Assembly (NCBI RefSeq): GCF_054482525.1
Contig: NZ_CM137006.1
Length of the DNA stretch: 64,000 nt
Direction: 5' to 3' (one strand)
The notes below the pieces were generated by a model. That model worked only from the letters and a program-made list of their open reading frames with translations, was not told the DNA's origin and did not search any database. How positions within the stretch are numbered: the stretch's first letter is position 1; every line of letters begins with the position of its first letter. The translations under genes and the position numbers were made by a program. Positions 3,899 through 45,851 of the stretch are shown here, piece after piece.

Positions 3899-5059
3899 TT
3901 ACTCAACAAAAATATGCGGATAAAACCGAGACATATCCTGGGTGATCAATGCACGGTCTTCACGAATGCCAATTCCGGCAGGTTGATCGTTCACCAGCCA
4001 GCTACCAATCAGCATATAGCTGTCGCCGAATTTCGGTAACGGGTGGAATTGCTGAACAATCATCCCTTCTTCGCCATACGGACCTTCCGCTGCTTCAATG
4101 GTTTTGCCGTTCTCAATGATCGACACGTTTGCGCCTTCACGGGAGAAGATCGGTTTAACCACATATTTTTCCATTTGCGGATGATCATCTTCCGCAAAAT
4201 AAGCGGGCAGCAGGTTCGGGTGATTCGGGAACATCTCCCACAGTAGCGGTAGAAGCGCTTTGTTGGAGATAATGCTCTTCCACGCCGGTTCCAGCCAGCG
4301 TACGCCTGCATCCTCCAGCTTGGTGGAGAACATCTCACGCAACATAAATTCCCACGGATACAGCTTGAACAGGTTGGAAATCACCTGATCCTGTAAATCC
4401 GTGAACTGACCTTTTTCACCTAACCCGATATCGTCGATGTAGAGGAACTCGGTAGCGATTTCAGCTTCCGTCGCGCAGTCCTGCAAATACTGAATGGTTC
4501 CGCGATCTTCCACCGTGTCGCGACAGCAGGTGAGATGCAGCAACTGGAAGCCATACTGTTCACGCAGCTCAACGAAGCGATCGATCAGCTTTTCTTGCAA
4601 ACTGTTAAACTGGTCGCTGCCCTCCGGCAAGTTACCGGCGTTAAGCTGATCTTCCAGCCAGATCCACTGAAAGAACGCCGCCTCGTATAGTGACGTTGGC
4701 GTATCGGCGTTATTTTCCAGAAGTTTAGGTTCGCCAGTGCCATCCCACGCCAGATCAAGACGCGAATAAAGCGATGGCTGGTGCGTCAGCCATGACTGGC
4801 GCACAAAACTCCAGGTGTGTTTTGGTATGCGGAATTTGGTCATCAGCTCATCGCTGGCGATCACTTTTTCCACCACTTTCAGGCACATCTGGTGCAGTTC
4901 GGCGGTGACTTCTTCCAGCTTTTCAACCTGAGCGAGGGTCAACTTGTAGTAAGCATCTTCACACCAGTACGGCTCGCCGTACATGGTGTGAAAATTGAAA
5001 CCGTATTCGTGGGCTTTTTCGCGCCAGTCCGGGCGCTCGGTAATACTGACTCTTTCCAT
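3899..5059 (-). CDS. ygiC: Glutathionylspermidine synthase-like ATP-grasp protein YgiC
   Basis: 386-aa ORF; homologous to synthetase half of Gss; tolC-ygiB-ygiC order. Confidence 0.9.
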
Positions 5060-29967: not shown

Positions 29968-30077
29968 TCTTCATACTCGCCCGAGGAGGGCGAGTATGGA
30001 ATACCTTTCGATTTCTCTTTCGTTCCGGCTTATAATCCCCGGCCTTTGATTATTTTTTTATCATTTCTGGAAGCAAA

Positions 30078-32297
30078 ATGAGCTCTATCTCCCTGATCCA
30101 ACCGGATCGCGACCTGTTCTCCTGGCCGCAGTACTGGGCCGCCTGTTTTGGACCGGCACCGTTTTTGCCGATGTCTCGTGAAGAGATGGATCAACTTGGC
30201 TGGGATAGCTGCGACATCATTTTGGTTACTGGCGACGCGTATGTCGATCACCCAAGCTTCGGGATGGCGATTTGCGGTCGTATGCTGGAAGCGCAGGGCT
30301 TTCGCGTCGGGATCATCGCCCAGCCGGACTGGAGCAGCAAAGACGACTTTATGCGTCTGGGTAAACCGAATCTGTTTTTCGGTGTTACTGCTGGCAACAT
30401 GGATTCGATGATCAACCGTTATACCGCCGATCGCCGTTTACGTCATGACGATGCCTACACGCCGGATAACGTCGCGGGTAAGCGCCCGGATCGCGCCACA
30501 CTGGTTTATACCCAGCGTTGTAAAGAGGCGTGGAAAGATGTACCGGTGATCCTCGGCGGTATTGAGGCTAGTCTGCGCCGTACCGCGCATTATGATTACT
30601 GGTCCGATACCGTGCGCCGTTCCGTGCTGGTGGATTCGAAAGCCGACATGCTGATGTTTGGTAACGGTGAGCGTCCGCTGGTGGAAGTGGCGCATCGTCT
30701 GGCGATGGGCGAGCCAATTAGTGAAATCCGCGATGTGCGTAATACCGCGATTATCGTGAAAGAGGCGCTGCCTGGCTGGAGCGGCGTGGATTCCACCCGT
30801 CTTGATACCCCTGGAAAAATCGACCCAATCCCGCATCCGTATGGTGAAGATTTGCCGTGCGCGGATAACAAACCGGTGGCACCGAAAAAGCAGGAAGCCA
30901 AAGCCGTAACCGTGCAGCCACCGCGCCCGAAACCGTGGGAAAAAACCTACGTGTTGCTGCCTTCTTTCGAGAAAGTGAAGGGCGATAAAGTGCTGTACGC
31001 CCATGCTTCGCGTATTCTGCACCACGAAACCAACCCAGGCTGTGCCCGCGCATTGATGCAAAAACACGGCGACCGCTATGTGTGGATCAACCCGCCTGCT
31101 ATTCCGCTTTCTACCGAAGAGATGGACAGCGTTTTTGCGCTGCCATACAAGCGCGTGCCACATCCGGCCTATGGCAATGCCCGTATTCCGGCTTACGAAA
31201 TGATCCGTTTTTCGGTCAACATTATGCGTGGCTGCTTTGGCGGCTGCTCTTTCTGTTCTATCACCGAGCACGAAGGGCGCATTATTCAGAGCCGTTCCGA
31301 AGATTCGATCATTAATGAGATCGAAGCGATCCGCGACACCGTTCCAGGTTTTACGGGCGTGATTTCCGATCTTGGTGGGCCAACTGCCAACATGTATATG
31401 TTGCGCTGCAAATCGCCACGCGCTGAACAAACTTGTCGCCGTTTGTCGTGCGTTTATCCGGATATTTGTCCGCACATGGACACGAACCACGAACCAACGA
31501 TCAACCTCTATCGCCGTGCGCGTGATCTGAAAGGCATTAAAAAGATCCTGATTGCCTCTGGTGTGCGTTATGACATAGCCGTAGAAGATCCGCGCTATAT
31601 CAAAGAACTGGCGACCCATCACGTCGGCGGTTATCTGAAGATTGCCCCGGAACATACCGAAGAAGGGCCGTTATCGAAGATGATGAAGCCGGGCATGGGC
31701 AGCTATGACCGCTTTAAAGAGCTGTTCGATACTTACTCAAAACAGGCAGGTAAAGAGCAGTATCTGATCCCCTATTTCATCTCCGCGCACCCCGGTACGC
31801 GTGATGAAGATATGGTGAATCTGGCGCTGTGGCTGAAAAAGCACCGCTTCCGCCTCGACCAGGTGCAGAACTTCTATCCGTCGCCGCTGGCGAACTCAAC
31901 CACCATGTATTACACCGGGAAAAACCCGCTGGCGAAGATTGGTTATAAGAGCGAAGACGTCTTCGTACCGAAGGGCGACAAACAGCGTCGTTTGCATAAA
32001 GCGTTGTTGCGTTACCACGATCCGGCAAACTGGCCGTTAATCCGCCAGGCGCTGGAAGCGATGGGCAAAAAGCATCTGATTGGCAGCCGTCGCGATTGCT
32101 TAGTGCCTGCGCCAACCATTGAAGAGATGCGTGAAGCTCGTCGCCAGAACCGCAATACCCGTCCGGCGTTGACGAAACATACGCCGATGGCGACCCAGCG
32201 TCAGACGCCTGCTACGGCAAAAAAAGCGTCGTCTACGCAATCTCGTCCGGTGAATGCTGGTGCGAAGAAACGGCCTAAAGCGGCGGTTGGACGTTAA
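30078..32297 (+). CDS. ygiQ: Radical SAM protein YgiQ (UPF0313)
   Basis: 739-aa ORF with CFGGCSFC radical-SAM cysteine motif. Confidence 0.9.
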
Positions 32298-32302
32298 AAA
32301 AT

Positions 32303-32339
32303 ATCCCCGGCAACTGACACGCTACCGGGGATTTTTTTA
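32303..32339. terminator. Bidirectional rho-independent terminator (atccccgg...ccggggat + T-run)
   Basis: Inverted repeat plus TTTTTTT between convergent ygiQ and yqhH. Confidence 0.75.
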
Positions 32340-32597
32340 TCATTCTGCGTACATACGCAAGCAGCGCAGGCAATCAAAATAGTCCTGAGCATCAAGACGC
32401 GTATTGGCTCTGTTAGCTTCGGATTTGGCAGCATAGATTTGTGGGCGTAGTGCTTTCATATCCTGCTCAAGCCGGGCGATTTTGGCATTTAATGTTTGCA
32501 CATTGCTCGCCAGCTGATTGACCTTTTGCTCATTGACGCAGCCACTGAGCAAGCAGGTTGCCAGAACAACAGCTCCCACGGTGAAAATCGTTTTCAT
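32340..32597 (-). CDS. yqhH: Lpp-like outer membrane lipoprotein YqhH
   Basis: 85-aa ORF, lipobox LSGC, coiled-coil. Confidence 0.85.
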
Positions 32598-32647
32598 ATA
32601 GTGTTCCCTTTTATTTATTGTTCCGGCTAATTGTTATTTAATTCAGC

Positions 32648-33574
32648 TCATTGCTTTAATCTGGCGGCAGTTTTTGCCTCAATCTGCTTAAGTAGGCTGC
32701 CGCTGTTCGGGCGGATAAAATCAGCGATTTCCCACTTGCCTTCGCGCCGCTGTAAAACCAGTTCTTGCTCTTCGTTGTTGCCATTGGTCAGCGTAAAACG
32801 AACATGAATGCGGGCGGAATCGGCGGTTTTCTCCAGGACTCGAATTTCATCAACGCGTGAAAATAGCGACTCTTCGCCAAAACAGATCGGATTGTCGTAA
32901 ATAAATTGCCGTTCTATTTGCATATCTTCATCGGGATTATTGGCCGTCTTGAAGGTGGTTTTATAGAAGGCATTAACCGCCTGGCGGTAAGAGTCGGAAA
33001 CCACCCACGTCCACGGCCAGCTATAATCAGCAATATGTTCAAAGAGTTCGGCAACAAAGGCTTCCGGCTGTTCTTTTTGCAACGAAGCTAAAGCGGCCAG
33101 CGTTTTTTCATTCTCGCTATTAACTGCTTGTAAGACGCTGCCATGATTGCTGACAATATCGTCAATGACCCAACGACCATTTTCCGCCACCATTTTCAGT
33201 GTCTGCGTGGTCTTTTCTTTATCATCTTTAAAGATACGAAAGCGCACAACGGCATCGGCATGATCGGCGTCAGTTTGGGTTATCGCAACGCTTTCTAGCA
33301 CCAGATCGCCAAAATCCTGACAATCACAAACCGGATCATAATCCAGCCAGCCAATATTGCCCGGCAGCGTAAGATTGTCGTTCAGGGTAAGCGCCTGTTG
33401 AATACGCGCAGAAGTTATCGCCCGCTCTCCAGTTTCACCAAAATAAGGGGCAGTGGCATCTGATTTATAGTTCTGATAAATATGCCGGACTGTTTGTTCT
33501 ACGGTCTGTGAGGGGGGCTGTGCGTGTACGGTAAAACTTGCCAGGGCTGCTAAAAACAGAAGTATTATTTTCAT
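32648..33574 (-). CDS. yqhG: DUF3828 periplasmic protein YqhG
   Basis: 308-aa ORF with signal peptide. Confidence 0.85.
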   Translation of the reverse strand: MKIILLFLAALASFTVHAQPPSQTVEQTVRHIYQNYKSDATAPYFGETGERAITSARIQQALTLNDNLTLPGNIGWLDYDPVCDCQDFGDLVLESVAITQTDADHADAVVRFRIFKDDKEKTTQTLKMVAENGRWVIDDIVSNHGSVLQAVNSENEKTLAALASLQKEQPEAFVAELFEHIADYSWPWTWVVSDSYRQAVNAFYKTTFKTANNPDEDMQIERQFIYDNPICFGEESLFSRVDEIRVLEKTADSARIHVRFTLTNGNNEEQELVLQRREGKWEIADFIRPNSGSLLKQIEAKTAARLKQ

Positions 33575-33773
33575 CTGTTTTTCACCTCTCCGTTGCGTTT
33601 ATCCCGGATATAGATGAGTTGTTCTTTTAAGAGCTTCCGGCTCTGCATGATGATGTCCTTATATTTGGCATTCCTGAACAAGGAAGAGTAACAACGGGCG
33701 GGACGCGAGGGGAATAAATGATTTCTGAAAAGTCCGGTAGCGGAACATTACCGCCACCGGGAGAATTTGCATG

Positions 33774-34601
33774 TTAGCCGCCGAACTGGTCAGGATCGGG
33801 ACCGAGACGCTTGCCCTGATCGAGTTTTGCAATTTCGCCGAGTTCGTCTTTGTCGAGACGGAAATCCCAGACATCAAAGTTTTCGGCAATACGTGAAGGT
33901 GTGACCGATTTCGGGATCACCACCAGGCCGCTATCCAGATGCCAGCGGATAACAATCTGCGCCGGGGTTTTGCCGTATTTATCTGCCAGATCGCGAATGA
34001 CTTTCTGATCGAAAACGCCTTTCCCTCCTTGCGCTAATGGGCTCCAGGATTCGGTCTGGATTTTGTGTGTCGCGTTCCAGGCGTGTAGCTGGCGTTGTTG
34101 CATCAGCGGATGAAGTTCGATCTGGTTTATCACAGGCGTCACGCCAGTTTCATCAATCAGGCGTTGCAGGTGATGGATCTGGAAGTTGCACACGCCGATG
34201 CTTTTGATTAATCCCTCTTTTTGCAATTCGATCATGCCTTTCCATGCTTCGACATAATGGTCGATAGCGGGAACGGGCCAGTGCATTAAGTAGAGGTCGA
34301 TATAATCAAGCTGGAGTTTTTTCAGGCTGTCGAGCAGGGCTTCGCGGGGGCGCTTGTGGTCGTCGTTCCACAGCTTAGTGGTGATGAACAGTTCTTCTCT
34401 GTTGACTGAGGCATTTTTCAGGGCTTTGCCGACACCTTCTTCGTTCTTGTAGGCCGCGGCGGTATCAATCGAGCGATAACCCACTTCTAACGCTTTTTGA
34501 ATGGCGGTGATTACTTCCTCATTACTTGCTTGCCAGACGCCCAGTCCCAGCTGGGGCATGACATTGCCATCCTGTAGCTTAATAACGGTTGGATTAGCCA
34601 T
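33774..34601 (-). CDS. dkgA: 2,5-diketo-D-gluconate reductase A / methylglyoxal reductase (AKR)
   Basis: 275-aa aldo-keto reductase ORF recognised. Confidence 0.9.
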   Translation of the reverse strand: MANPTVIKLQDGNVMPQLGLGVWQASNEEVITAIQKALEVGYRSIDTAAAYKNEEGVGKALKNASVNREELFITTKLWNDDHKRPREALLDSLKKLQLDYIDLYLMHWPVPAIDHYVEAWKGMIELQKEGLIKSIGVCNFQIHHLQRLIDETGVTPVINQIELHPLMQQRQLHAWNATHKIQTESWSPLAQGGKGVFDQKVIRDLADKYGKTPAQIVIRWHLDSGLVVIPKSVTPSRIAENFDVWDFRLDKDELGEIAKLDQGKRLGPDPDQFGG

Positions 34602-34705
34602 ACGTTCCTCCTTTATATGAACTCACCGGAGCAGGCTCCGGTGAGGTGTTGTGAACTTAAGTCTGGACGAAATGCCCGAAAACGAAAGTTTGAGGCGTAA
34701 AAAGC

Positions 34706-35869
34706 TTAGCGGGCGGCTTCGTATATACGGCGGCTGACATCCAACGTAATGTCATGATTTTCGCCCAGTTGGGTCATGCCGTGCTCTTCCAGTTTTTTCA
34801 GCAAAGCCGGGATGGAGCTGCCGTCCAGACCGTAGTCGGAGAGGTGGGTCGGCACGCCTAATTGCTCAAAGAAATTGCGGGTTGCGGCAATCGCGGCGTC
34901 AATACGCTCATCGTCGGAACCTTCAGTGATGTTCCAGACGCGTTCAGCATATTGCAGCAGCTTAGCGCGCTTGGTATCGCGTTTTTCATTCCACAGTGCA
35001 GGCAGGACGATAGCCAGTGTTTGTGCGTGATCCAGACCGTGCATCGCAGTCAGTTCGTGGCCCAGCATATGCGTTGCCCAGTCCTGCGGTACGCCAGCGC
35101 CGATCAAACCGTTCAGCGCCTGAGTCGCCGCCCACATAACGTTGGCGCGCACATCGTAGTTTTCTGGCTCTTTCAGGGCTTTCGGACCATCTTCGATCAG
35201 CGTCAACAAAATGCCTTCTGCGAAACGGTCCTGAATTTTGGCATCAACCGGTTTGGTAACATACTGTTCCACGGTGTGCACAAAGGCATCCACTACACCG
35301 TTAGCCACCTGACGCGGCGGCAGGGTGTAGGTATAAACCGGATCGAGCACGGCAAATACCGGCTGAACATGGGCAGAATGGAATGCCTGCTTGTCGCCTG
35401 TGGTTTTACGGGAGATCACCGCGCCTGCGTTGGATTCTGAACCGGTTGCTGGCAGCGTCAGCACACAGCCCATCGGGATGGCGCTTTTAATCTCTTTACC
35501 GCCCGTTTGCAGAATGTGCCACGGATCGATATTTTCCGGATAGTTAGCCGCTGCGGCGATAAATTTGGTGCCGTCCAGTACAGAACCGCCGCCAACCGCC
35601 AGCAGGAAAGTCACTTTTTGTTCGCGAACCAGTTTCACGGCGTTCATCAGCGTTTCATAAGCCGGGTTTGGCTCAATACCGCCAAATTCCAGCACGTCCA
35701 TGCCTTTCAGGGCATCCAGAACTTGATCGAGAACGCCGGTTTTTTTCACGCTGCCGCCGCCGTAGGTAATCAATACGCGAGCATCGTGAGGAATTTGTTC
35801 GCGTAAACCAGCGATTGCGCCTTTACCAAACAGAATGCGGGTTGGGGTGTGCAGATTAAAGTTGTTCAT
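34706..35869 (-). CDS. yqhD: NADPH-dependent aldehyde reductase YqhD (iron-containing ADH)
   Basis: ORF track 34706..35893; start trimmed to [15 protein letters not shown] (387 aa). Confidence 0.9.
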
Positions 35870-36005
35870 TACTTGCTCCCTTTGCTGGGTCAATATGAGG
35901 GCAGAGATCGGTCTGCCTGATGTTTTTCATTGTGGTCGCCAGCGCCGTACCTCTCAATGCTCATTTCTGCCAATGTCTTGCCTATTTCTCCAGAGTGCTG
36001 GAGAA

Positions 36006-36962
36006 ATGCTACAAAATTGCGCACAATCAAATTGCCGCATTATTCCTAAGAAATTACGCGATATGAAACGTGAAGAGATTTGCCGCTTGCTGGCGGATAA
36101 AGTTAATAAACTGAAAAATAAAGAAAATAGTTTGTCAGAGCTGTTGCCCGATGTGCGTTTGTTGTATGGCGAGACGCCTTTCGCACGCACACCGGTGATG
36201 TACGAGCCTGGCATCATAATTCTCTTTTCCGGACATAAAATCGGTTATATCAATGAACGCGTGTTTCGTTATGATGCCAATGAATACCTGCTGCTGACGG
36301 TGCCGTTGCCGTTTGAGTGCGAAACCTATGCCACGTCAGAGGTGCCGCTGGCAGGGTTGCGTCTCAATGTCGATATTTTGCAGTTACAGGAACTGTTGAT
36401 GGACATTGGCGAAGATGAGCATTTCCAGCCGTCGATGGCAGCCAGCGGGATTAACTCTGCCACGTTATCAGAAGAGATTTTATGCGCGGCGGAGCGGTTA
36501 CTCGACGTGATGGAGCGACCGCTGGATGCGCGTATTCTCGGCAAACAGATCATCCGCGAAATTCTGTACTACGTGCTGACCGGACCTTGCGGTGGCGCGT
36601 TACTGGCACTGGTCAGCCGCCAGACTCACTTCAGCCTGATTAGCCGCGTGCTGAAACGGATTGAGAATAAATACACCGAAAACCTGAGCGTCGAGCAACT
36701 GGCGGCAGAAGCCAACATGAGCGTATCGGCGTTCCACCATAATTTTAAGTCTGTCACCAGCACCTCGCCGTTGCAGTATTTGAAGAATTACCGTCTGCAT
36801 AAGGCGCGGATGATGATCATCCACGACGGCATGAAAGCCAGTGCGGCAGCGATGCGCGTCGGTTACGAAAGCGCATCGCAATTTAGCCGTGAGTTTAAAC
36901 GTTACTTTGGTGTGACGCCGGGGGAAGATGCGGCAAGAATGCGGGCGATGCAGGGGTATTAA
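36006..36962 (+). CDS. yqhC: AraC-family activator YqhC
   Basis: ORF track 35835..36962; start trimmed to [10 protein letters not shown] (318 aa); C-terminal AraC HTH. Confidence 0.85.
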
Positions 36963-37001
36963 ATACGTTCCCGGTACAGCAGCCGGGAACGGGGAAAATC
37001 G

Positions 37002-37661
37002 TCAGGCGTTACAGTATTTTTTTTTAATCACCACAAACAGCGTGCCTAACAAGCCAGCGGTTAACAAGGCAATTGGCAGGATCATCAGGAACGTCATTAC
37101 CTGATCTTCATGGCGTTTAACGAACGGAATCATGCTTAAGGCATAGCCGAAACTGGTTACTACGCTGACCCACAGCAATCCGCTTAACCAGTTGAAAAAC
37201 TGGAAACGGCGGTTTGGCAGACCGGAAATTCCCGCCATGGTTGGCAGCAACGTACGGACAAATGCAAGAAAACGTCCAGCCAGCAGCGCCAGCAGACCGT
37301 GGCGGTCAAACATGCAGGTGGCGCGCTGGTGATATTTAGCAGGAAGCTGTGCCAGCCAGCCTTTCACCGTTTTGGTATTCCCTAACCAGCGCCCCTGAAT
37401 ATAACTTAACCAGCAGCCCAGACTTGCTGCGGCGGTCAGAATCGCAATCGTAGGCAGAAAATCCATAACCCCCTGGGCAATCAATGCGCCAGCCAATATC
37501 AACAAGCTGTCGCCTGGCAAAAATGAGGCGGGCAGCAGGCCGTTTTCTAAAAACAGCGTGGCAAACATGACAAAGTAAACAACGCTAACAATATGAGGAT
37601 CCGCCAGCGCGGCAAAGTCGTGTTGCCAGAGCGCAGCGATGATATCTTGAATAACAGCCAT
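37002..37661 (-). CDS. yghB: DedA-family inner membrane protein YghB
   Basis: 219-aa hydrophobic ORF recognised. Confidence 0.9.
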
Positions 37662-37800
37662 GGACTTTCCTGTGGAACAGCGTTTAAGCCTTTATCTGCC
37701 TATTGTACTCCTGAATCGTCCGGGACGCCTTGATCCCGGACGCAACAATTTAAGACTTTTCACAATAAAATGTCTGCAAAATTGTCCAAAAGTGGCAATG

Positions 37801-38988
37801 TTATACAATTCGCGCAAAACCGGCGTCCAGATCGGCAATCAGATCGTCGACATCTTCCAGACCAATATGCAGGCGAATCAAGGTCCCGCTAAAATCGATC
37901 TCGCCTTGTGGACGAATGGCGGCGATATGTTCTGGTTGATTTGCCAGGATCAACGATTCATAACCGCCCCACGAGTAGGCCATGCTGAATAAACTGAAGT
38001 TATCCAGATAGTTCACCAGCTCTTCATCATTGAGTTTTTTCTTAAGCACAAAGGAAAATAGCCCGCTGCTACCTGTAAAGTCTCGTTTCCAGAATTCGTG
38101 GCCTTTACTGCCAGGCAGAGCAGGGTGGTTAACTCGCGCTACTTGCGGATGTTCTGCCAGCCATTCAGCCACTTTCAGACTGCTTTCATGATGTTGACGC
38201 AGGCGAACACCCAAAGTGCGCAGGCCACGGCTGGTTATATAGGCGGTATCGGCATCGACCATCTGCCCCATCAGATAGGCATTCTCCCGCAGCTGCTCCC
38301 AGCAACGGGCATTGCATACGGCAGTACCAATCATCGCATCTGAATGCCCCACCAGATATTTGGTGGCTGCCTGAATGGAAACATCAATGCCAAAATCCAG
38401 CGCCTTAAACAGCACACCGGCCGCCCAGGTGTTATCGATCATAATGATGGCATCCGGCACCACACTGCGCACGGCGGCAACAATCGCCGGAACGTCGTGG
38501 ACTTCCATGGTGATGGAGCCTGGGGATTCCAGAAACACGATTTTAGTGTTTGGCTGCACATGTTTAACGATATTTGCGCCAATCAGCGGATCAAACCACG
38601 ATGTCGTTACGCCCAGTTTGCTGAGGATTTTGCTACAGAAATCCTGACTCGGTTCATAGGCGGTGTTGGTCATCAACACATGATCGCCCTGTTCGACAAA
38701 AGCAAGAATAGAATTAGCAACCGCCGCCGCCCCGCAGGGGAACAGCACGCAGCCTGCGCCACCCTCCAGTTCGCACATCGCTTGTTGTAAGGAAAAATGG
38801 GTTAACGTTCCGCGCCGTCCATAAAACAACTCGCCATTGGCGCGATTGCGCGTCGCGTGTTTTTTGGCTTCCACACTGTCAAAGACCAGCGAAGAAGCGC
38901 GCTGAATCACGCTATTTACCGCGCCGAGAGTGTATTTTTTGCTGCGTCCTGCGTTCACCAGTTGAGTATCAAGCTTTTTGTCCGCCAT
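37801..38988 (-). CDS. metC: Cystathionine beta-lyase
   Basis: ORF track 37801..39123; start trimmed to [15 protein letters not shown] (395 aa); PLP lysine motif region. Confidence 0.95.
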
Positions 38989-39239
38989 GTCGGGATTCCT
39001 GTTTTTATACGTCTGGATGTCTAAACTAGCATGAATATTCGCGGGCGCATCCTGAAGAATTGGCATAAAGCAGAAAATTTTCGCAAATGGCGTGCTGGTG
39101 ACTTTTTTACTGCGTAAACGCAAGGAAAAGAAAGCAAAGGTACGGCAGTATGCAAATAGTAATGAGAACGACTATCAATTCGACGTCGTTTTGATATTAT
39201 TATGCGCAGATTTTGTGACTTGCGTCCTGGAGATACACA

Positions 39240-39974
39240 GTGGGTAATAATTTAATGCAGACGGACCTTTCCGTCTGGGGTATGTATCAGCACGCCGATA
39301 TTGTCGTTAAGTGCGTGATGATTGGGCTTATTTTGGCCTCCGTAGTCACCTGGGCAATCTTCTTCAGTAAGAGCGTAGAGTTCTTCAATCAGAAGCGTCG
39401 CCTTAAGCGCGAGCAGCAACTGCTGGCTGAAGCGCGTTCCTTAAACCAGGCCAACGATATCGCCGCTGATTTTGGTAGCAAAAGCTTAAGCCTGCATTTG
39501 CTCAATGAAGCGCAGAATGAGCTGGAACTGTCAGAAGGCAGCGACGATAACGAAGGTATTAAAGAACGTACCAGCTTCCGTCTGGAGCGTCGGGTCGCCG
39601 CAGTAGGTCGTCAAATGGGCCGCGGTAACGGCTATCTGGCAACCATCGGCGCGATTTCGCCGTTCGTTGGTCTGTTTGGTACGGTCTGGGGCATCATGAA
39701 CAGCTTTATTGGTATCGCGCAAACGCAGACCACTAACCTGGCAGTCGTTGCGCCGGGTATCGCAGAAGCTCTGTTAGCAACGGCAATCGGCCTCGTGGCA
39801 GCGATTCCGGCGGTCGTTATCTATAACGTATTTGCACGCCAGATTGGCGGCTTTAAAGCGATGCTGGGTGATGTTGCAGCGCAGGTATTGTTGCTGCAAA
39901 GCCGTGACCTGGATCTGGAAGCCAGCGCCGCTGCGCATCCGGTTCGTGTCGCACAAAAATTACGCGCAGGATAA
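39240..39974 (+). CDS. exbB: TonB-system energiser ExbB
   Basis: 244-aa ORF recognised. Confidence 0.95.
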   Translation: MGNNLMQTDLSVWGMYQHADIVVKCVMIGLILASVVTWAIFFSKSVEFFNQKRRLKREQQLLAEARSLNQANDIAADFGSKSLSLHLLNEAQNELELSEGSDDNEGIKERTSFRLERRVAAVGRQMGRGNGYLATIGAISPFVGLFGTVWGIMNSFIGIAQTQTTNLAVVAPGIAEALLATAIGLVAAIPAVVIYNVFARQIGGFKAMLGDVAAQVLLLQSRDLDLEASAAAHPVRVAQKLRAG

Positions 39975-39980
39975 TGTCCG

Positions 39981-40406
39981 ATGGCAATGCATCTTAACGA
40001 AAACCTCGACGATAATGGCGAAATGCATGATATCAACGTGACGCCGTTTATCGACGTGATGTTGGTTCTGCTGATTATCTTTATGGTGGCGGCACCGTTA
40101 GCGACGGTAGATGTGAAGGTGAACTTGCCTGCTTCTACCAGCACGCCGCAGCCGCGCCCGGAAAAACCGGTTTATCTGTCGGTGAAGGCGGACAACTCGA
40201 TGTTTATCGGTAACGATCCGGTCACCGATGAAACAATGGTTACGGCGCTGAATGCGTTAACTGAAGGTAAGAAAGACACCACCATCTTCTTCCGTGCGGA
40301 TAAAACCGTCGATTACGAGACGTTGATGAAGGTAATGGATACGCTGCATCAGGCGGGTTATCTGAAGATAGGTCTGGTCGGCGAAGAAACCGCCAAAGCG
40401 AAATAA
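39981..40406 (+). CDS. exbD: TonB-system energiser ExbD
   Basis: 141-aa ORF recognised. Confidence 0.95.
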   Translation: MAMHLNENLDDNGEMHDINVTPFIDVMLVLLIIFMVAAPLATVDVKVNLPASTSTPQPRPEKPVYLSVKADNSMFIGNDPVTDETMVTALNALTEGKKDTTIFFRADKTVDYETLMKVMDTLHQAGYLKIGLVGEETAKAK

Positions 40407-40411
40407 AAATG

Positions 40412-40446
40412 ATGCCCGGTTGCTTTTCACAACCGGGCATTTTTTT
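40412..40446. terminator. Bidirectional rho-independent terminator (gcccggttg...caaccgggc + T-run)
   Basis: Inverted repeat plus TTTTTTT between convergent exbD and yghA. Confidence 0.75.
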
Positions 40447-41329
40447 AACCTAAATGCTCGCCGCCGCACACACCGTGCACTTCTGCGGTGACGTAGCTCG
40501 ACTCCTGACTTGCCAGATAAACATATACAGGGGCCAGTTCCGCCGGTTGCCCCGCACGCTTCATCGGCGTTTTCTGACCAAACTGCGGGATCTTATCCTG
40601 CGTCTGTCCGCCGGAAATTTGCAGTGCTGTCCAGATCGGGCCTGGCGCGACAATATTCACCCGAATACCTTTCTCCGCGACCTGTTTTGCCAGGCCTCGG
40701 CTGTAGTTCAGAATCGCCGCCTTCGTAGCCGCATAGTCCAGTAAATGCGGGCTTGGCTGGTATGCCTGGATTGACGAAGTGGTGATGATACTGGCACCTT
40801 TCGGTAGCAGGGGTATCGCTTCCTGGGTTAGCCAGAACAGCGCGAAAACGTTAATGGCAAAGGTCTTTTGAAACTGTTCGCTGGTGAGGTCTGCAATATC
40901 AGGAATGGCAACCTGTTTCCCGGCGACCAGCGCCATAATATCCAGCCCGCCTAACGCCTTGTGCGCTTCGTGAACCAGCGAACGGGCGAATTTCTCATCG
41001 CTTAAATCGCCTGGCAGCAGAACGGCTTTGCGTCCGCATTCTTCAATGATCTTTTTCACATCCTGAGCGTCTTGTTCTTCTACGGGAAGATAACTAATCG
41101 CCACGTCAGCCCCTTCACGCGCGTAAGCAATGGCGGCAGCGCGACCGATTCCGGAATCGCCCCCTGTCACCAGTGCTTTACGATCTTTCAGGCGACCGCT
41201 ACCAACATAGGTTTTCTCGCCGCAATCCGGTACCGGTGTCATCTTCGCCTGGATGCCTGGCGTCGGTTGTTTCTGTTTGGGATATTCACCAGTGTAATAC
41301 TGCGTGGTCGGGTCTTTTAAATGAGACAT
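40445..41329 (-). CDS. yghA: SDR-family oxidoreductase YghA
   Basis: 294-aa ORF with TGGDSGIG Rossmann motif. Confidence 0.9.
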
Positions 41330-41450
41330 CGTTTTTCTCCCTTCAGGTTCAACGTCCTTTAAGGGTAGACGCTCTCGATGCGTTGATAAGGGAACCAGGA
41401 AGATCCCTAAACCTCGGATTTATGCGACAAAGGTTTAACGGATATGTTGA

Positions 41451-42014
<564 letters not shown>

Positions 42015-42053
42015 TCTGATTCGGGCGCGGTTCTCGCGCCCGTTATTAACAGG

Positions 42054-43094
42054 TCATTTATCGGAAGACGCCTGCCACAGATTCAGCTCGCCATCGGCGA
42101 TATGCTGATCAATCTGCGCCAGCTCCTCGGTGCTAAATGTCAGATTATTCAGCGCCTGCACGTTCTCCTCAAGTTGCTCCGCGCGGCTGGCACCAATCAA
42201 TACCGACGTCACTCGCTCATCTTTCAGCAACCAGCTTAACGCCATTTGCGCCATTGATTGTCCACGCTGCTGTGCCATTTCATTCAATAAGCGCAGGCTG
42301 TTGAGGTTGGCTTCGGTGAGCATTTTCGGCGTCAGACCACGAACTTTATTCCCTTCACGATGCATCCGTGAATCTTGCGGAATGCCGTTGAGATATTTTC
42401 CGGTCAGCAATCCCTGAGCCAGAGGAGTAAAGGCAATGCAGCCCACGCCGTTATTTTGCAGGGTATCCAGCAGGCCGCTTTTATCCACCCAGCGGTTCAG
42501 TAAATTGTACGAAGGTTGATGAATTAACAGCGGAATTTTCCACTCGCGCAGTAACTCGACCATTTTTTGCGTCCGCTCTGGCGAGTAAGAGGAGATCCCG
42601 ACATACAGCGCCTTACCGCTTTGTACCGCATGAGCCAGCGCAGAGGCGGTTTCTTCCATCGGCGTATTTTCATCGACGCGATGAGAGTAAAAGATATCGA
42701 CATACTCAAGCCCCATACGCTTCAGGCTTTGGTCGAGGCTGGCGAGCAGGTATTTACGTGAACCGCCAGAGCCGTAAGGGCCGGGCCACATATCGTAGCC
42801 AGCCTTGGTAGAGATAATCAGTTCATCGCGATAAGCGGCAAAATCCTCCCGCAGCAGGCGACCAAAGTTCTCTTCTGCGCTTCCTGGAGGCGGCCCGTAA
42901 TTATTGGCTAAATCAAAGTGCGTAATGCCCAAATCAAACGCTTTACGCAGGATCGCACGCTGTGATTCCAGCGCGTTAACGTGACCGAAATTGTGCCATA
43001 AACCGAGCGATAACGCGGGCAGGCGCAAACCACTTTTTCCGCAATAGCGGTACTGCATCTGCCCGTAACGTTCGGGATTCGCTAACCAGACCAT
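42054..43094 (-). CDS. gpr: L-glyceraldehyde 3-phosphate reductase (AKR)
   Basis: 346-aa ORF recognised (yghZ). Confidence 0.9.
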   Translation of the reverse strand: MVWLANPERYGQMQYRYCGKSGLRLPALSLGLWHNFGHVNALESQRAILRKAFDLGITHFDLANNYGPPPGSAEENFGRLLREDFAAYRDELIISTKAGYDMWPGPYGSGGSRKYLLASLDQSLKRMGLEYVDIFYSHRVDENTPMEETASALAHAVQSGKALYVGISSYSPERTQKMVELLREWKIPLLIHQPSYNLLNRWVDKSGLLDTLQNNGVGCIAFTPLAQGLLTGKYLNGIPQDSRMHREGNKVRGLTPKMLTEANLNSLRLLNEMAQQRGQSMAQMALSWLLKDERVTSVLIGASRAEQLEENVQALNNLTFSTEELAQIDQHIADGELNLWQASSDK

Positions 43095-43250
43095 GACCTC
43101 TCCTTTCCACCGTTCAATTTCGAAACAATGTTTCTAGTTTAGCGATTCGCCAGCGCGTATCCCGTAGTCTGGCTCACAGAGTGACGAAAAACTGGGCAAA
43201 AACACGTGCTTATGCTTTGCTTAAAAAAACACCAGCTGAGGAGTGCAACG

Positions 43251-44138
43251 ATGCCGCGTTTAACCGCCAAAGATTTCCCACAAGAGTTGCTGGATTACTA
43301 CGACTATTACGCTCACGGGAAAATCTCGAAACGTGAGTTCCTCAACCTTGCGGCGAAGTATGCGGTGGGCGGGATGACGGCATTAGCGTTGTTTGATTTG
43401 CTCAAGCCAAATTATGCGCTGGCGACTCAGGTAGAGTTTACCGACCCGGAAATTGTTGCTGAGTACATCACGTATCCTTCGCCAAATGGTCACGGCGAGG
43501 TGCGGGGTTATCTGGTGAAGCCCGCAAAGATGAGCGGCAAAACGCCAGCCGTGGTGGTGGTGCATGAGAATCGTGGACTGAATCCGTATATCGAAGATGT
43601 GGCACGGCGAGTGGCGAAGGCGGGGTATATCGCCCTGGCTCCTGACGGCTTAAGTTCCGTTGGAGGTTATCCGGGTAATGATGATAAAGGTCGTGAGCTG
43701 CAACAGCAGGTTGATCCAACCAAACTGATGAATGATTTCTTTGCCGCAATTGAGTTTATGCAAAGCTATCCGCAAGCGACAGGCAAAGTGGGTATTACTG
43801 GATTTTGCTATGGCGGTGGCGTATCGAACGCGGCAGCGGTCGCTTACCCGGAACTGGCCTGCGCGGTGCCGTTTTATGGTCGTCAGGCACCCACTGCCGA
43901 TGTGGCGAAGATTGAAGCGCCTTTACTACTCCACTACGCGGAACTGGACACCCGAATCAACGAGGGCTGGCCTGCTTACGAGGCGGCGTTGAAAGCCAAT
44001 AATAAGGTCTATGAGGCGTATATCTATCCGGGGGTTAATCACGGATTCCATAATGATTCCACGCCCCGTTATGACAAATCTGCCGCCGATCTTGCCTGGC
44101 AAAGGACGCTGAAATGGTTCGATAAATATCTCTCCTGA
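43251..44138 (+). CDS. yghX: Dienelactone hydrolase family protein YghX (intact here)
   Basis: ORF track 43206..44138; likely start MPRLTAKDF; alpha/beta hydrolase. Confidence 0.75.
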   Translation: MPRLTAKDFPQELLDYYDYYAHGKISKREFLNLAAKYAVGGMTALALFDLLKPNYALATQVEFTDPEIVAEYITYPSPNGHGEVRGYLVKPAKMSGKTPAVVVVHENRGLNPYIEDVARRVAKAGYIALAPDGLSSVGGYPGNDDKGRELQQQVDPTKLMNDFFAAIEFMQSYPQATGKVGITGFCYGGGVSNAAAVAYPELACAVPFYGRQAPTADVAKIEAPLLLHYAELDTRINEGWPAYEAALKANNKVYEAYIYPGVNHGFHNDSTPRYDKSAADLAWQRTLKWFDKYLS

Positions 44139-44218
44139 TGGGTTTATCTCTTACAGGATTACGTCTTAAACAAGCATGAAAAAATAGCGTGCGCAAATGT
44201 CGTTCTTTGCCTAAAATA

Positions 44219-44244
44219 TCGCTATATATGACAATATATAGCGA
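44219..44244. promoter_or_regulatory. Perfect 11-bp inverted repeat tcgctatatat-gaca-atatatagcga upstream of yghW
   Basis: Seen directly; ends 13 bp before yghW start codon. Confidence 0.4.
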
Positions 44245-44256
44245 ATGAGGTGAACG

Positions 44257-44544
44257 ATGAATAACCATTTTGGTAAAGGCTTAATGGCGGGATTAAAAGC
44301 AACGCATGCCGACAGTGCGGTTAATGTGACAAAATTCTGTGCCGATTATAAACGCGGTTTTGTATTAGGCTACTCACACCGGATGTACGAAAAGACCGGA
44401 GATCGCCAGCTTAGCGCCTGGGAAGCGGGTATTCTGACGCGCCGTTATGGACTGGATAAAGAGATGGTAATGGATTTCTTTCGTGAGAATAATTCCTGTT
44501 CTACGTTGCGCTTTTTTATGGCCGGTTATCGCCTAGAAAATTGA
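44257..44544 (+). CDS. yghW: DUF2623 protein YghW
   Basis: 95-aa ORF recognised. Confidence 0.8.
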
Positions 44545-44732: not shown

Positions 44733-45851
44733 ATGACTGGAGATAACACCCTCATCCATTCTCACGGCATTAACCGTCGTGATTTCATGAAGCTTTGTGC
44801 AGCATTAGCCGCCACCATGGGGTTAAGTAGCAAAGCCGCTGCAGAGATGGCCGAATCGGTTACTAACCCGCAGCGTCCGCCAGTTATCTGGATTGGCGCG
44901 CAGGAGTGTACCGGTTGTACGGAATCTCTGCTTCGTGCAACGCATCCAACGGTAGAAAACCTCGTGCTGGAGACTATCTCTCTGGAGTATCACGAAGTGC
45001 TTTCCGCCGCCTTCGGTCATCAGGTCGAAGAGAACAAACATAACGCTCTCGAGAAGTACAAAGGGCAGTATGTGTTAGTGGTGGATGGTTCCATCCCATT
45101 AAAAGATAACGGTATTTATTGCATGGTTGCCGGTGAGCCGATTGTGGATCACATCCGCAAAGCGGCGGAAGGCGCAGCAGCCATTATCGCTATCGGTTCC
45201 TGCTCTGCGTGGGGCGGTGTTGCCGCGGCTGGGGTTAACCCAACTGGCGCGGTCAGTCTGCAAGAAGTTCTGCCAGGCAAAACTGTAATCAACATTCCTG
45301 GCTGCCCGCCGAACCCGCACAACTTTCTAGCGACCGTTGCGCACATCATCACTTACGGCAAGCCGCCGAAACTGGATGACAAAAACCGTCCGACTTTCGC
45401 CTACGGTCGTCTGATTCACGAACACTGCGAACGTCGCCCGCACTTCGATGCTGGTCGTTTTGCCAAAGAGTTCGGTGATGAAGGCCACCGCGAAGGCTGG
45501 TGCCTGTACCACCTCGGCTGTAAAGGGCCAGAAACTTACGGCAACTGCTCAACGCTGCAATTCTGCGATGTTGGCGGTGTGTGGCCGGTGGCGATTGGTC
45601 ACCCGTGCTATGGCTGTAACGAAGAAGGTATCGGCTTCCATAAAGGCATCCATCAGCTTGCCAACGTCGAAAACCAGACTCCGCGTTCACAGAAACCGGA
45701 TGTTAACGCTAAAGAAGGCGGCAACGTCTCGGCAGGCGCTATTGGTTTGCTCGGCGGTGTGGTTGGGCTGGTTGCCGGTGTCAGCGTGATGGCGGTGCGT
45801 GAACTGGGTCGTCAGCAAAAGAAAGATAACGCTGACTCACGGGGAGAATAA
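44733..45851 (+). CDS. hybO: Hydrogenase-2 small subunit (Tat signal)
   Basis: 372-aa ORF with RRDFMK twin-arginine motif and C-terminal TM anchor. Confidence 0.95.

Follow-up and report, generated by a model that had tools for sequence, protein, structure and literature searches.

The yghX gene of Escherichia coli K-12 MG1655 (b4658) is annotated as a pseudogene that overlaps a second gene, yqhI (b4755). The stretch of DNA analyzed here (64,000 nucleotides of contig NZ_CM137006.1, assembly GCF_054482525.1; hereafter the window) carries the orthologous gene, which raises the question of whether an enzyme that is broken in K-12 is kept in this strain and what this enzyme might be. With a probability of roughly 0.9, positions 43,251–44,138 on the plus strand hold an intact, ancestral yghX that codes for a 295-amino-acid α/β hydrolase of the dienelactone hydrolase (DLH) family. 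The open reading frame runs from an ATG at 43,251 to a TGA ending at 44,138 (888 nt), and the continuous hydrolase frame that had been predicted from the sequence is uninterrupted. Its product matches the NCBIfam profile NF041440 (“YghX family hydrolase”) with 587.9 bits (E = 3e-177, cutoff 460), and the match spans residues 3–294 and profile positions 1–292 of 292. The Pfam DLH profile PF01738 covers residues 84–294 with profile positions 1–217 of 217 (165.8 bits, E = 1.4e-48, gathering threshold 21 bits), and the Pfam family PF23678 (YqhI-like) matches residues 1–36. The length of the reading frame and these domain matches are far beyond chance.

The start codon is defined by several observations. 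A Shine-Dalgarno sequence (AGGAG, 43,239–43,243, plus strand) is located 7 nt before the ATG, the enterobacterial homologs all begin with M-[P/T]-R-[L/M]-T-A-K in an alignment of 10 sequences, and PGAP places the start of the identical yghX of strain GF131 at the same ATG. A GTG at 43,206, which would extend the protein to 310 residues, was rejected, as it has no Shine-Dalgarno sequence and neither the homologs nor PGAP use it. Of the 296 to 310 amino acids given in the original prediction, the shorter form is borne out as 295 residues plus the stop codon, whereas the longer one is unsupported. The yghX locus is 100% identical to that of GF131, and the exact protein is already public on 155 contigs. 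For the adjoining 13 kb, the nearest relatives are strains other than GF131, at only 99.2%. Beyond E. coli, the full-length architecture is kept at 85–92% identity in Citrobacter, Pseudescherichia, Enterobacter, Kosakonia, Leclercia, and Lelliottia.

The surroundings of the gene are those of K-12. A comparison of the open reading frame map with the K-12 and GF131 annotations yields the order yqhA, gpr (yghZ), yghX, yghW, and hybO, which equals the K-12 order in reversed orientation. The position of yghX between gpr and yghW, beside the hyb operon, is orthologous to that in K-12 and GF131. An AT-rich palindrome is present upstream of yghW.

The window and K-12 share the locus and its neighbors, and they differ in two lesions that K-12 has and the window does not. 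Pairwise alignment and MAFFT place the first at 43,359–43,361 (plus strand), where K-12 has lost 2 bp (TA or AT of G-TAT-G) in codon Tyr37, and the second at 43,720–43,721 (plus strand), where one C of CC in codon Thr157 is missing. The window gene has neither deletion and falls outside the K-12-type pseudogene allele class. The K-12 gene had been described as a frameshifted pseudogene, to be aligned in order to locate the frameshift; this agrees with the MG1655 annotation, except that the alignment contains two frameshifts instead of one. When both lesions are repaired in silico, K-12 yghX encodes 295 amino acids without further stops and differs from the window protein by two residues (S172R and Y229F). 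At the nucleotide level, 14 substitutions separate the two genes over 888 nt. Since only two of these are nonsynonymous, yghX appears to be under purifying selection.

The first lesion also explains what is left of the gene in K-12. The 47-residue protein YqhI consists of YghX residues 1–36 (MPRL...LAAK), which correspond to positions 43,251–43,358 on the plus strand according to the K-12 annotation and PF23678, followed by 11 residues translated from the shifted frame (CGRRDDGISVV*). YqhI is the translated stump left by the breakage of yghX in K-12, a composition that is not stated in the YqhI literature searched. YqhI is induced in low Mg2+ in a PhoQP-independent manner, and the induction is visible in RNA-seq and absent in a reporter construct (PMC11429745).

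The distribution of these alleles was determined with the intact and K-12 junction sequences at both sites in 5,426 complete E. coli genomes. At codon 37, the intact junction is found in 3,785 and the −2 bp junction in 1,251 genomes; a further 389 genomes are covered by neither junction at this site, presumably due to SNPs in the seed. At codon 157, 4,221 genomes have the intact and 1,199 the −1 bp junction. By this junction-based estimate, ∼22–23% of complete genomes carry the K-12 lesions and ∼70–78% the intact junctions. The intact gene is the majority and ancestral state in E. coli, so that the oddity belongs to the K-12 sub-lineage and not to the window strain. The occurrence of the same lesions in 1,199–1,251 independent genomes rules out that they are private to K-12 and excludes sequencing artifacts. 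The gene is intact in BL21 and in O157:H7 Sakai, the source of a crystallized protein (PDB-ID: 4ZV9). Strain S1-JOR-02-A, in which the gene is annotated as “frameshifted,” has the −2 bp lesion only, on a haplotype one substitution away from K-12. Because of this haplotype, the sequences place the −2 bp deletion at codon 37 first and the −1 bp deletion at codon 157 second in the K-12 lineage. The gene was lost independently at least once more, through a −1 deletion in a G5 run of an O145 strain.

The protein is predicted to take on the α/β hydrolase fold of solved DLHs. The AlphaFold model (pLDDT 96.5) resembles ClcD from Pseudomonas (1DIN) with a TM-score (TMt) of 0.83, and its core superimposes on 4ZV9 with an rmsd of 0.5 Å over 235 columns. 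4ZV9 (O157:H7 Sakai, NF041440 family) represents the same protein with ∼98% identity over residues 60–294. It differs by the substitutions V68F, S135N, S172R, and Y229F and by the absence of residues 1–59 from the crystal construct. A HMMER alignment to the ClcD variant 4U2C, read together with alignments of 10 enterobacterial and 31 diverse sequences, assigns the putative active site. Cys186 (43,806–43,808), which lies within G-F-C-Y-G-G, is the predicted nucleophile and equivalent to Cys123 of ClcD (a serine in the 4U2C variant); true dienelactone hydrolases likewise use a cysteine. Asp233 (43,947–43,949) corresponds to ClcD Asp171, His264 in V-N-H-G-F (44,040–44,042) to His202, and Glu106 in H-E-N-R-G (43,566–43,568) to Glu36, all on the plus strand. 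Cys186 and His264 are conserved in at least 90% of the diverse sequences, Asp233 in 31 of 31, and Cys186, His264, and Glu106 are invariant among the enterobacterial ones. The predicted triad Cys186-His264-Asp233 plus Glu106 is accordingly present and conserved. The Ser/Asp/His triad that had been anticipated is correct in that the catalytic residues are in place, but its nucleophile is a cysteine and not a serine. By analogy with the family, the Cys186 thiolate would attack the carbonyl of an ester, lactone, or thioester to form an acyl-enzyme that would then be hydrolyzed by water, with His264 and Asp233 acting as the proposed relay.

These residues bear on the reading that yghX, despite its undamaged sequence, no longer functions or is not expressed in this strain. 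The gene would then be a cryptic pseudogene at an early stage and add no activity beyond K-12. A consensus scan detected no sigma-70 promoter upstream of yghX, no phenotype is known for the gene, it is dispensable in K-12, where it serves as a neutral integration site (PMC7677707), and it was lost separately in the O145 strain. However, the catalytic residues are all intact and conserved, the two amino acid changes among 14 nucleotide differences point to purifying selection, and the full-length protein is conserved over several genera. The same start codon moreover gives detectable translation in K-12, as YqhI, in epitope tagging (PMC6001520) and ribosome profiling (PMC11429745), and the upstream region of the window differs from that of K-12 at only two positions. 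A cryptic pseudogene is therefore considered highly unlikely. That the strain may keep an activity lost in K-12, as first suggested, is plausible on grounds of conservation.

The nature of this activity may deviate from the family name. ClcD possesses Arg81 and Arg206, the residues that bind the substrate carboxylate. Arg81 aligns with Arg148 of YghX, but Arg206 (R206A mutant structure, 1ZIC) aligns with Asn268, invariant among the 10 enterobacterial sequences, which leaves the arginine pair incomplete. The native substrate of YghX is probably not dienelactone, since Arg206 is replaced by Asn268 and E. coli is not known to have a chlorocatechol pathway. Genuine dienelactone hydrolase activity (carboxymethylenebutenolidase, EC 3.1.1.45), with conversion of dienelactone to maleylacetate, would fit the Pfam DLH membership, the triad and glutamate common to YghX and ClcD (1DIN, 4U2B-G), and the name “carboxymethylenebutenolidase” given to homologs in some databases. 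Yet the identity to ClcD is only ∼25–27%, and genes for a chlorocatechol or maleylacetate pathway are absent among the neighbors of yghX, whose flanks are gpr, yghW, and hyb. The 58-residue leader of YghX has no counterpart in ClcD, a cytoplasmic protein of 236 amino acids whose gene belongs to a chlorocatechol operon, a context that yghX lacks. An EC 3.1.1.45 activity appears extremely unlikely from these comparisons. The nearest non-orthologous solved structure is a putative DLH from Klebsiella pneumoniae (3F67; E = 5e-23, 28% identity), which shares the G-F-C-x-G-G nucleophile motif with YghX and lacks a YqhI-like leader. The 3F67 enzyme is weakly active on the phosphotriester FDDEP, while the purified 4ZV9 protein, EcoDLH, shows no phosphotriesterase activity (bioRxiv 10.1101/2025.10.30.685675).

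A different role has been proposed in which YghX would belong to the G-x-C-x-G acyltransferases and either polymerize or depolymerize short-chain poly-(R)-3-hydroxybutyrate (cPHB). As relayed in a review by Reusch (PMC3709699), Rychlewski et al. considered ysgA, ycjY, and yghX by bioinformatics and named yghX a candidate cPHB polymerase based on the G-x-C-x-G motif and fold similarity. The same review locates ∼75% of the cPHB polymerase activity in the periplasm, and YghX has a weak NCBIfam similarity to the catalytic domain of short-chain PHA depolymerases (23 bits, E = 4.6e-5). This score is, however, far under the curated cutoff of 150 bits, and the nearest solved structures are all DLH-type hydrolases. 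The tie to YghX is bioinformatic and not experimental, and cPHB biology was studied in K-12, which itself has no functional YghX. A cPHB-related function is thus judged unlikely. YghX is best described as a putative orphan enzyme whose structure has been solved, whose catalytic cysteine is conserved, and which may be located in the periplasm.

This possible periplasmic location is suggested by a conserved N-terminal leader (codons 1–58, 43,251–43,424, plus strand), identified by alignment with distant homologs as a candidate Tat-type export signal. The leader is composed of an acidic helix (LLDYYDYYAH), the motif K27-R28-E-F-L, a weakly hydrophobic stretch, and P53-N-Y-A-L-A58, and it aligns with a canonical RRxFL, h-region, and AxA in the distant homologs. 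Among the 31 diverse homologs, position 27 is an arginine in 26 and position 28 in 28. The h-region consists of 83% A/G/S/T/L/V/I/M, yet the pairwise identity is only 0.29. The cleavage-site pattern comprises Ala or Gly at −1 (25/31), Ala at −3 (19/31), and Pro at −6 (17/31). In YghX, the Kyte-Doolittle mean peaks at 1.55 for a segment of 15 residues and P53 precedes A56-L-A58, so that h-region and A-x-A are present and the pattern is conserved family-wide. The consecutive arginines of the Tat motif are missing, as the sequence reads S26-K27-R28-E-F-L, and Lys-Arg is found in all 120 close relatives. The Tat signal of HybO in the same window (44,733) and YghX HGKISKREFLNLAAKYAVGGMTALALFDLLKPNYALA both display a long n-region, an [S/T/N]-R-R-x-F-[L/M]-like motif, a weak h-region, and A-x-A. 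YghX is unlike Tat signals in its Lys-Arg pair, in the charged residues K36 and D49 that flank the short h-region, in the conserved acidic helix before the motif, and in its lack of a curated profile match. The curated profiles (TIGR01409 TAT_signal_seq and the Pfam Tat models) gave no match to the YghX N-terminus at E values up to 10, and the Arg-Arg homologs reach 16.4 (P0128), 14.5, and 9.0 bits, all below the cutoff of 16.7. It is about an even call that the leader is a Tat-type export signal with a natural Lys-Arg variant that would be cleaved after Ala58 to give a periplasmic mature enzyme.

Alternatively, the leader may be a folded three-helix extension that is docked on the hydrolase core as a cap or lid. 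YghX would then be cytoplasmic, and the RR/KR pair would have a structural or substrate-binding role. AlphaFold models residues 1–60 with three ordered helices (11–21, 27–37, and 44–51) at a pLDDT of 91–95 and a pTM of 0.93. The leader of the Arg-Arg-bearing homolog P0141 is modeled with equal confidence, hence the prediction carries no signal that discriminates an export signal from a cap. The contig that carries the P0141 gene is only 1.9 kb long and uninformative about its genomic context. A cap would also fit the conservation of the leader within the Enterobacteriaceae, which equals that of the core (0.91 versus 0.88), the lysine in place of the first arginine in 120 of 120 close relatives, the missing match to curated Tat profiles, and the conserved acidic helix (LYDxYxH) ahead of the motif, an atypical feature for an n-region. 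On the other hand, the diverse homologs show every Tat hallmark: RRxFL is best conserved, the composition of the h-region is kept without its sequence, and Pro −6 and AxA are present. Some homologs (P0251, P0219) have variable-length Ala/Pro-rich linkers after the leader, and the core folds and crystallizes without it (4ZV9). None of the structures recovered by a fold search of the PDB includes the YghX leader, and literature searches on DLHs as twin-arginine/Tat substrates and on yghX and the periplasm found no localization data. The folded cap is a tentative but serious alternative. The export reading as a whole, in which YghX would be a Tat-exported periplasmic cysteine hydrolase with an unusually conserved, structured Lys-Arg leader and YqhI a mere stump of this leader in the ∼23% of genomes with the −2 bp deletion, has slightly less than an even chance.

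The intact yghX of the window is a correct but ordinary observation, as the gene, its family, its pseudogene status in K-12, its sequence, and a crystal structure are already public, and by itself it adds little that is new. For this locus, K-12 should not be taken as the reference. In the engineering of K-12/W3110, yghX is routinely used as a neutral “pseudogene” integration site (PMC7677707); in BL21 and most natural isolates, the gene is conserved and probably functional. Work on YqhI in K-12 should reckon with YqhI as a truncated remnant of YghX, and this may be the reason why the reported growth defect of the yqhI deletion is not rescued by the small protein alone (PMC11429745). If the export reading is true, YqhI would not be an evolved small protein, and its low-Mg2+ induction would reflect the regulation of the ancestral hydrolase gene.

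The DLH-family hydrolase gene yghX lies on the plus strand of the window in a frame of 888 nt that starts with the ATG at 43251 and closes with a stop codon ending at 44138. The original prediction of a continuous frame is borne out by the window sequence and its ORF listing, as the 295-aa product is encoded without interruption. A 310-aa version starting at an in-frame GTG (43206) was rejected: an AGGAG sequence is located 7 nt upstream of the ATG, every enterobacterial YghX homolog in the alignment begins with M-[P/T]-R-[L/M]-T-A-K, and the NCBI pipeline annotates the identical gene of E. coli GF131 from the same ATG. Residues 84-294 of YghX match the Pfam family DLH (PF01738, E=1.4e-48), and residues 1-36 match the YqhI-like family (PF23678). 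Against the NCBIfam model NF041440 ("YghX family hydrolase"), the protein scores 587.9 bits (cutoff 460). Its neighbors yqhA, gpr/yghZ (divergent), yghW, and hybO follow the K-12 gene order, while the window is oriented opposite to K-12.

In K-12 MG1655, yghX (b4658, 3146856..3147691) is annotated as a pseudogene and overlaps with yqhI (b4755, 3147597..3147740), a CDS of 47 codons. This agrees with the frameshifted K-12 pseudogene that had been predicted, but the alignment of the two loci locates two frameshifts instead of one. The first, at window 43359-43361 in codon Tyr37, deletes 2 bp (TA/AT); the second, at 43720/43721 in codon Thr157, deletes 1 bp (one C of CC), for a combined loss of 3 bp. 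In K-12, frame 0 encodes residues 1-36 followed by CGRRDDGISVV and a stop, which is exactly YqhI. The +1 frame is stop-free over residues 38-157, and frame 0 resumes from Lys158 to the natural stop. When repaired in silico, K-12 yghX yields a 295-aa protein that differs from the window protein only at S172R and Y229F, with 14 nucleotide differences in all. These small distances argue that K-12 yghX is damaged by the two indels alone and that its inactivation is recent.

The small K-12 protein YqhI (47 aa; 4598-4741, minus strand, of the K-12 comparison segment, equivalent to window 43251-43358 plus a frameshifted tail) is composed of YghX residues 1-36 and 11 frameshift-encoded residues that stem from the 2-bp deletion. 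In the study that validated it via chromosomal epitope tagging, it appears as an sORF located between "yghX_2" and gpr (PMC6001520). Low Mg2+ reportedly induces YqhI in a PhoQP-independent manner, and the phenotype of the yqhI deletion was not complemented by the small protein (PMC11429745). Neither paper describes YqhI as a YghX remnant, and PMC11429745 mentions neither yghX nor a pseudogene. YqhI requires the 2-bp deletion and is therefore limited to the ∼23% of genomes that have it. The YqhI experiments demonstrate activity of the yghX start codon and its upstream signals in K-12. With only two upstream positions differing in the window, this lends inferential support to the intact gene being expressed in the window strain. 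The genes gadA, gadB, aldB, fbaB, and tktB belong to the RpoS regulon. In K-12 RNA-seq data the yghX transcript falls together with theirs (PMC9746237), a lead that hints at yghX being a stationary-phase or stress gene.

The yghX locus is present in 5,425 of 5,426 complete E. coli genomes, in which the alleles were counted using megablast queries that are specific to each junction and unable to seed on the alternative allele. At codon 37 (−2 bp), the K-12 junction is found in 1,251 genomes (23.1%) and the intact junction in 3,785 (69.8%), with 389 genomes in neither class, presumably due to SNPs in the seed. At codon 157 (−1 bp), the respective counts are 1,199 (22.1%) and 4,221 (77.8%), totaling 5,420. 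In approximately 52 genomes, only the first of the two lesions is present. Strain S1-JOR-02-A, annotated as "frameshifted," has the 2-bp deletion only and is one substitution away from K-12 across the locus. These genomes indicate that the 2-bp deletion came first and the 1-bp deletion later on the same haplotype. The O145 strain RM12275-C1 is also annotated as "frameshifted" and lacks one base in the G5 run of yghX (window 44030-44034), unrelated to the K-12 lesions; either yghX was lost there separately or the homopolymer was misassembled. In isolate K12a, the A7 run upstream of an intact yghX (window 43223-43229) is one base shorter (A6). The gene is intact in BL21, the protein in PDB 4ZV9 originates from O157:H7 Sakai, and full-length YghX is kept at 85-92% identity in Citrobacter, Pseudescherichia, Enterobacter, Kosakonia, Leclercia, and Lelliottia. 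Taken with the junction counts, this points to intact yghX as the ancestral majority state and to the K-12 sub-lineage as the exception.

A protein identical to that of the window is already found in public databases, on 155 contigs, under the name "YghX family hydrolase." The window strain is itself absent from the 5,426 complete genomes, of which GF131 alone matches the yghX segment at 100%; none of the others exceeds 98.3% identity. The adjoining 13 kb (30000-43100) is closest to strains other than GF131, at 99.2%. Window 30000-44260 reads as an ordinary recombination mosaic of an uncommon lineage. The sRNA ES173 (RF02753; 34640-34703, minus strand; 99 bits, gathering score 90) is the only Rfam family found across the whole window. 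Downstream of yghX, a perfect 11-4-11 palindrome, TCGCTATATAT-GACA-ATATATAGCGA (44219-44244), precedes the yghW ATG (44257) by 12 nt, and K-12 has the identical sequence. A K-12 promoter atlas places a constitutive sigma-70 promoter for yghW, TTGCCT-17-GACAAT, within this intergenic spacer (PMC3946193). TTGCCT is located at 44207-44212 and GACAAT at 44230-44235, the palindrome center. The −10 element is hence bracketed by the palindrome, which may serve as an operator.

Catalytic residues were assigned by HMMER alignment to 4U2C, the structure of a C123S variant of the Pseudomonas dienelactone hydrolase ClcD. Cys186 of YghX, within the motif G-F-C-Y-G-G, aligns with ClcD position 123, Asp233 with Asp171, His264 with His202, and Glu106 with Glu36. 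All four are invariant in 10/10 enterobacterial sequences; among 31 diverse sequences (36-68% identity), Asp233 is present throughout, and conservation reaches at least 90% for Cys186 and His264. Alignment and conservation point to a Cys-His-Asp triad. The original prediction, which had proposed Ser/Asp/His, was right in its observation and interpretation overall, but not in the number of frameshifts or the nucleophile, predicted here to be Cys186. The AlphaFold model of YghX (pLDDT 96.5) superposes on 4ZV9, the E. coli YghX core (EcoDLH), with an rmsd of 0.5 Å (235 columns); for superposition on ClcD, the TM is about 0.83. Following family precedent, the Cys186 thiolate would attack an ester or lactone carbonyl, and the acyl-enzyme would then be hydrolyzed. 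Phosphotriesterase activity was absent from purified EcoDLH, whose crystal contained an oxidized or modified active-site cysteine (bioRxiv 10.1101/2025.10.30.685675). That YghX is a true dienelactone hydrolase is unlikely, as ClcD Arg206 aligns with the invariant Asn268 and a chlorocatechol context is absent among its window and K-12 neighbors. Based on a G-x-C-x-G motif, earlier bioinformatic work put forward yghX, ysgA, and ycjY as candidate cPHB polymerases (PMC3709699); the only support for this idea in the present analysis is a similarity to a PHA depolymerase domain (NCBIfam) that stays far below threshold.

The core is preceded by a leader (residues 1-58) that is missing from the 4ZV9 construct, in which apparently an SNA tag remnant is followed by Gln60. 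In distant homologs, this region takes the form ...LYDxYxH-xxxx-RRxFL, an Ala/Gly/Ser/Thr/Leu-rich stretch, and P-x-x-A-x-A. The position of Lys27 is Arg in 26/31 and that of Arg28 in 28/31 diverse homologs. Across these 31 sequences, conservation within the leader is highest at the RR motif (pairwise identity 0.51 versus 0.41 in the core). The h-region is stable in composition (83% small or hydrophobic residues), while its sequence varies (0.29). Ala or Gly occupies position −1 in 25 of the sequences, and Ala occupies position −3 in 19. This pattern matches a Tat signal peptide signature, and Tat export of YghX itself is a candidate to which we assign a probability of about 50%. Somewhat less probable is a cytoplasmic YghX with a folded N-terminal cap, in line with the Lys-Arg found at the RR position in 120/120 close relatives. 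Against export, none of the curated Tat profiles matches YghX, and the RR homologs only come near the cutoff (16.4 versus 16.7 bits). Leader and core are equally well conserved within Enterobacteriaceae (0.91 versus 0.88), and AlphaFold predicts three ordered helices (pLDDT 91-95). The N terminus of P0141, a distant homolog with a textbook RR leader that was modeled for calibration, is equally confident (pLDDT 89-97), which indicates that such models do not discriminate signal from cap among YghX homologs. No YghX localization data were found in the searchable literature. A convenient comparator for Tat export within the window is hybO (44733-45851, plus strand), 0.6 kb downstream of yghX, which has a textbook Tat leader.

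An intact yghX is already known and ordinary, a conserved core-genome gene with a lineage-restricted pseudogene in K-12. The remaining value lies in the reinterpretation of YqhI and in a possible Lys-Arg Tat leader, still a candidate, on an orphan cysteine hydrolase.
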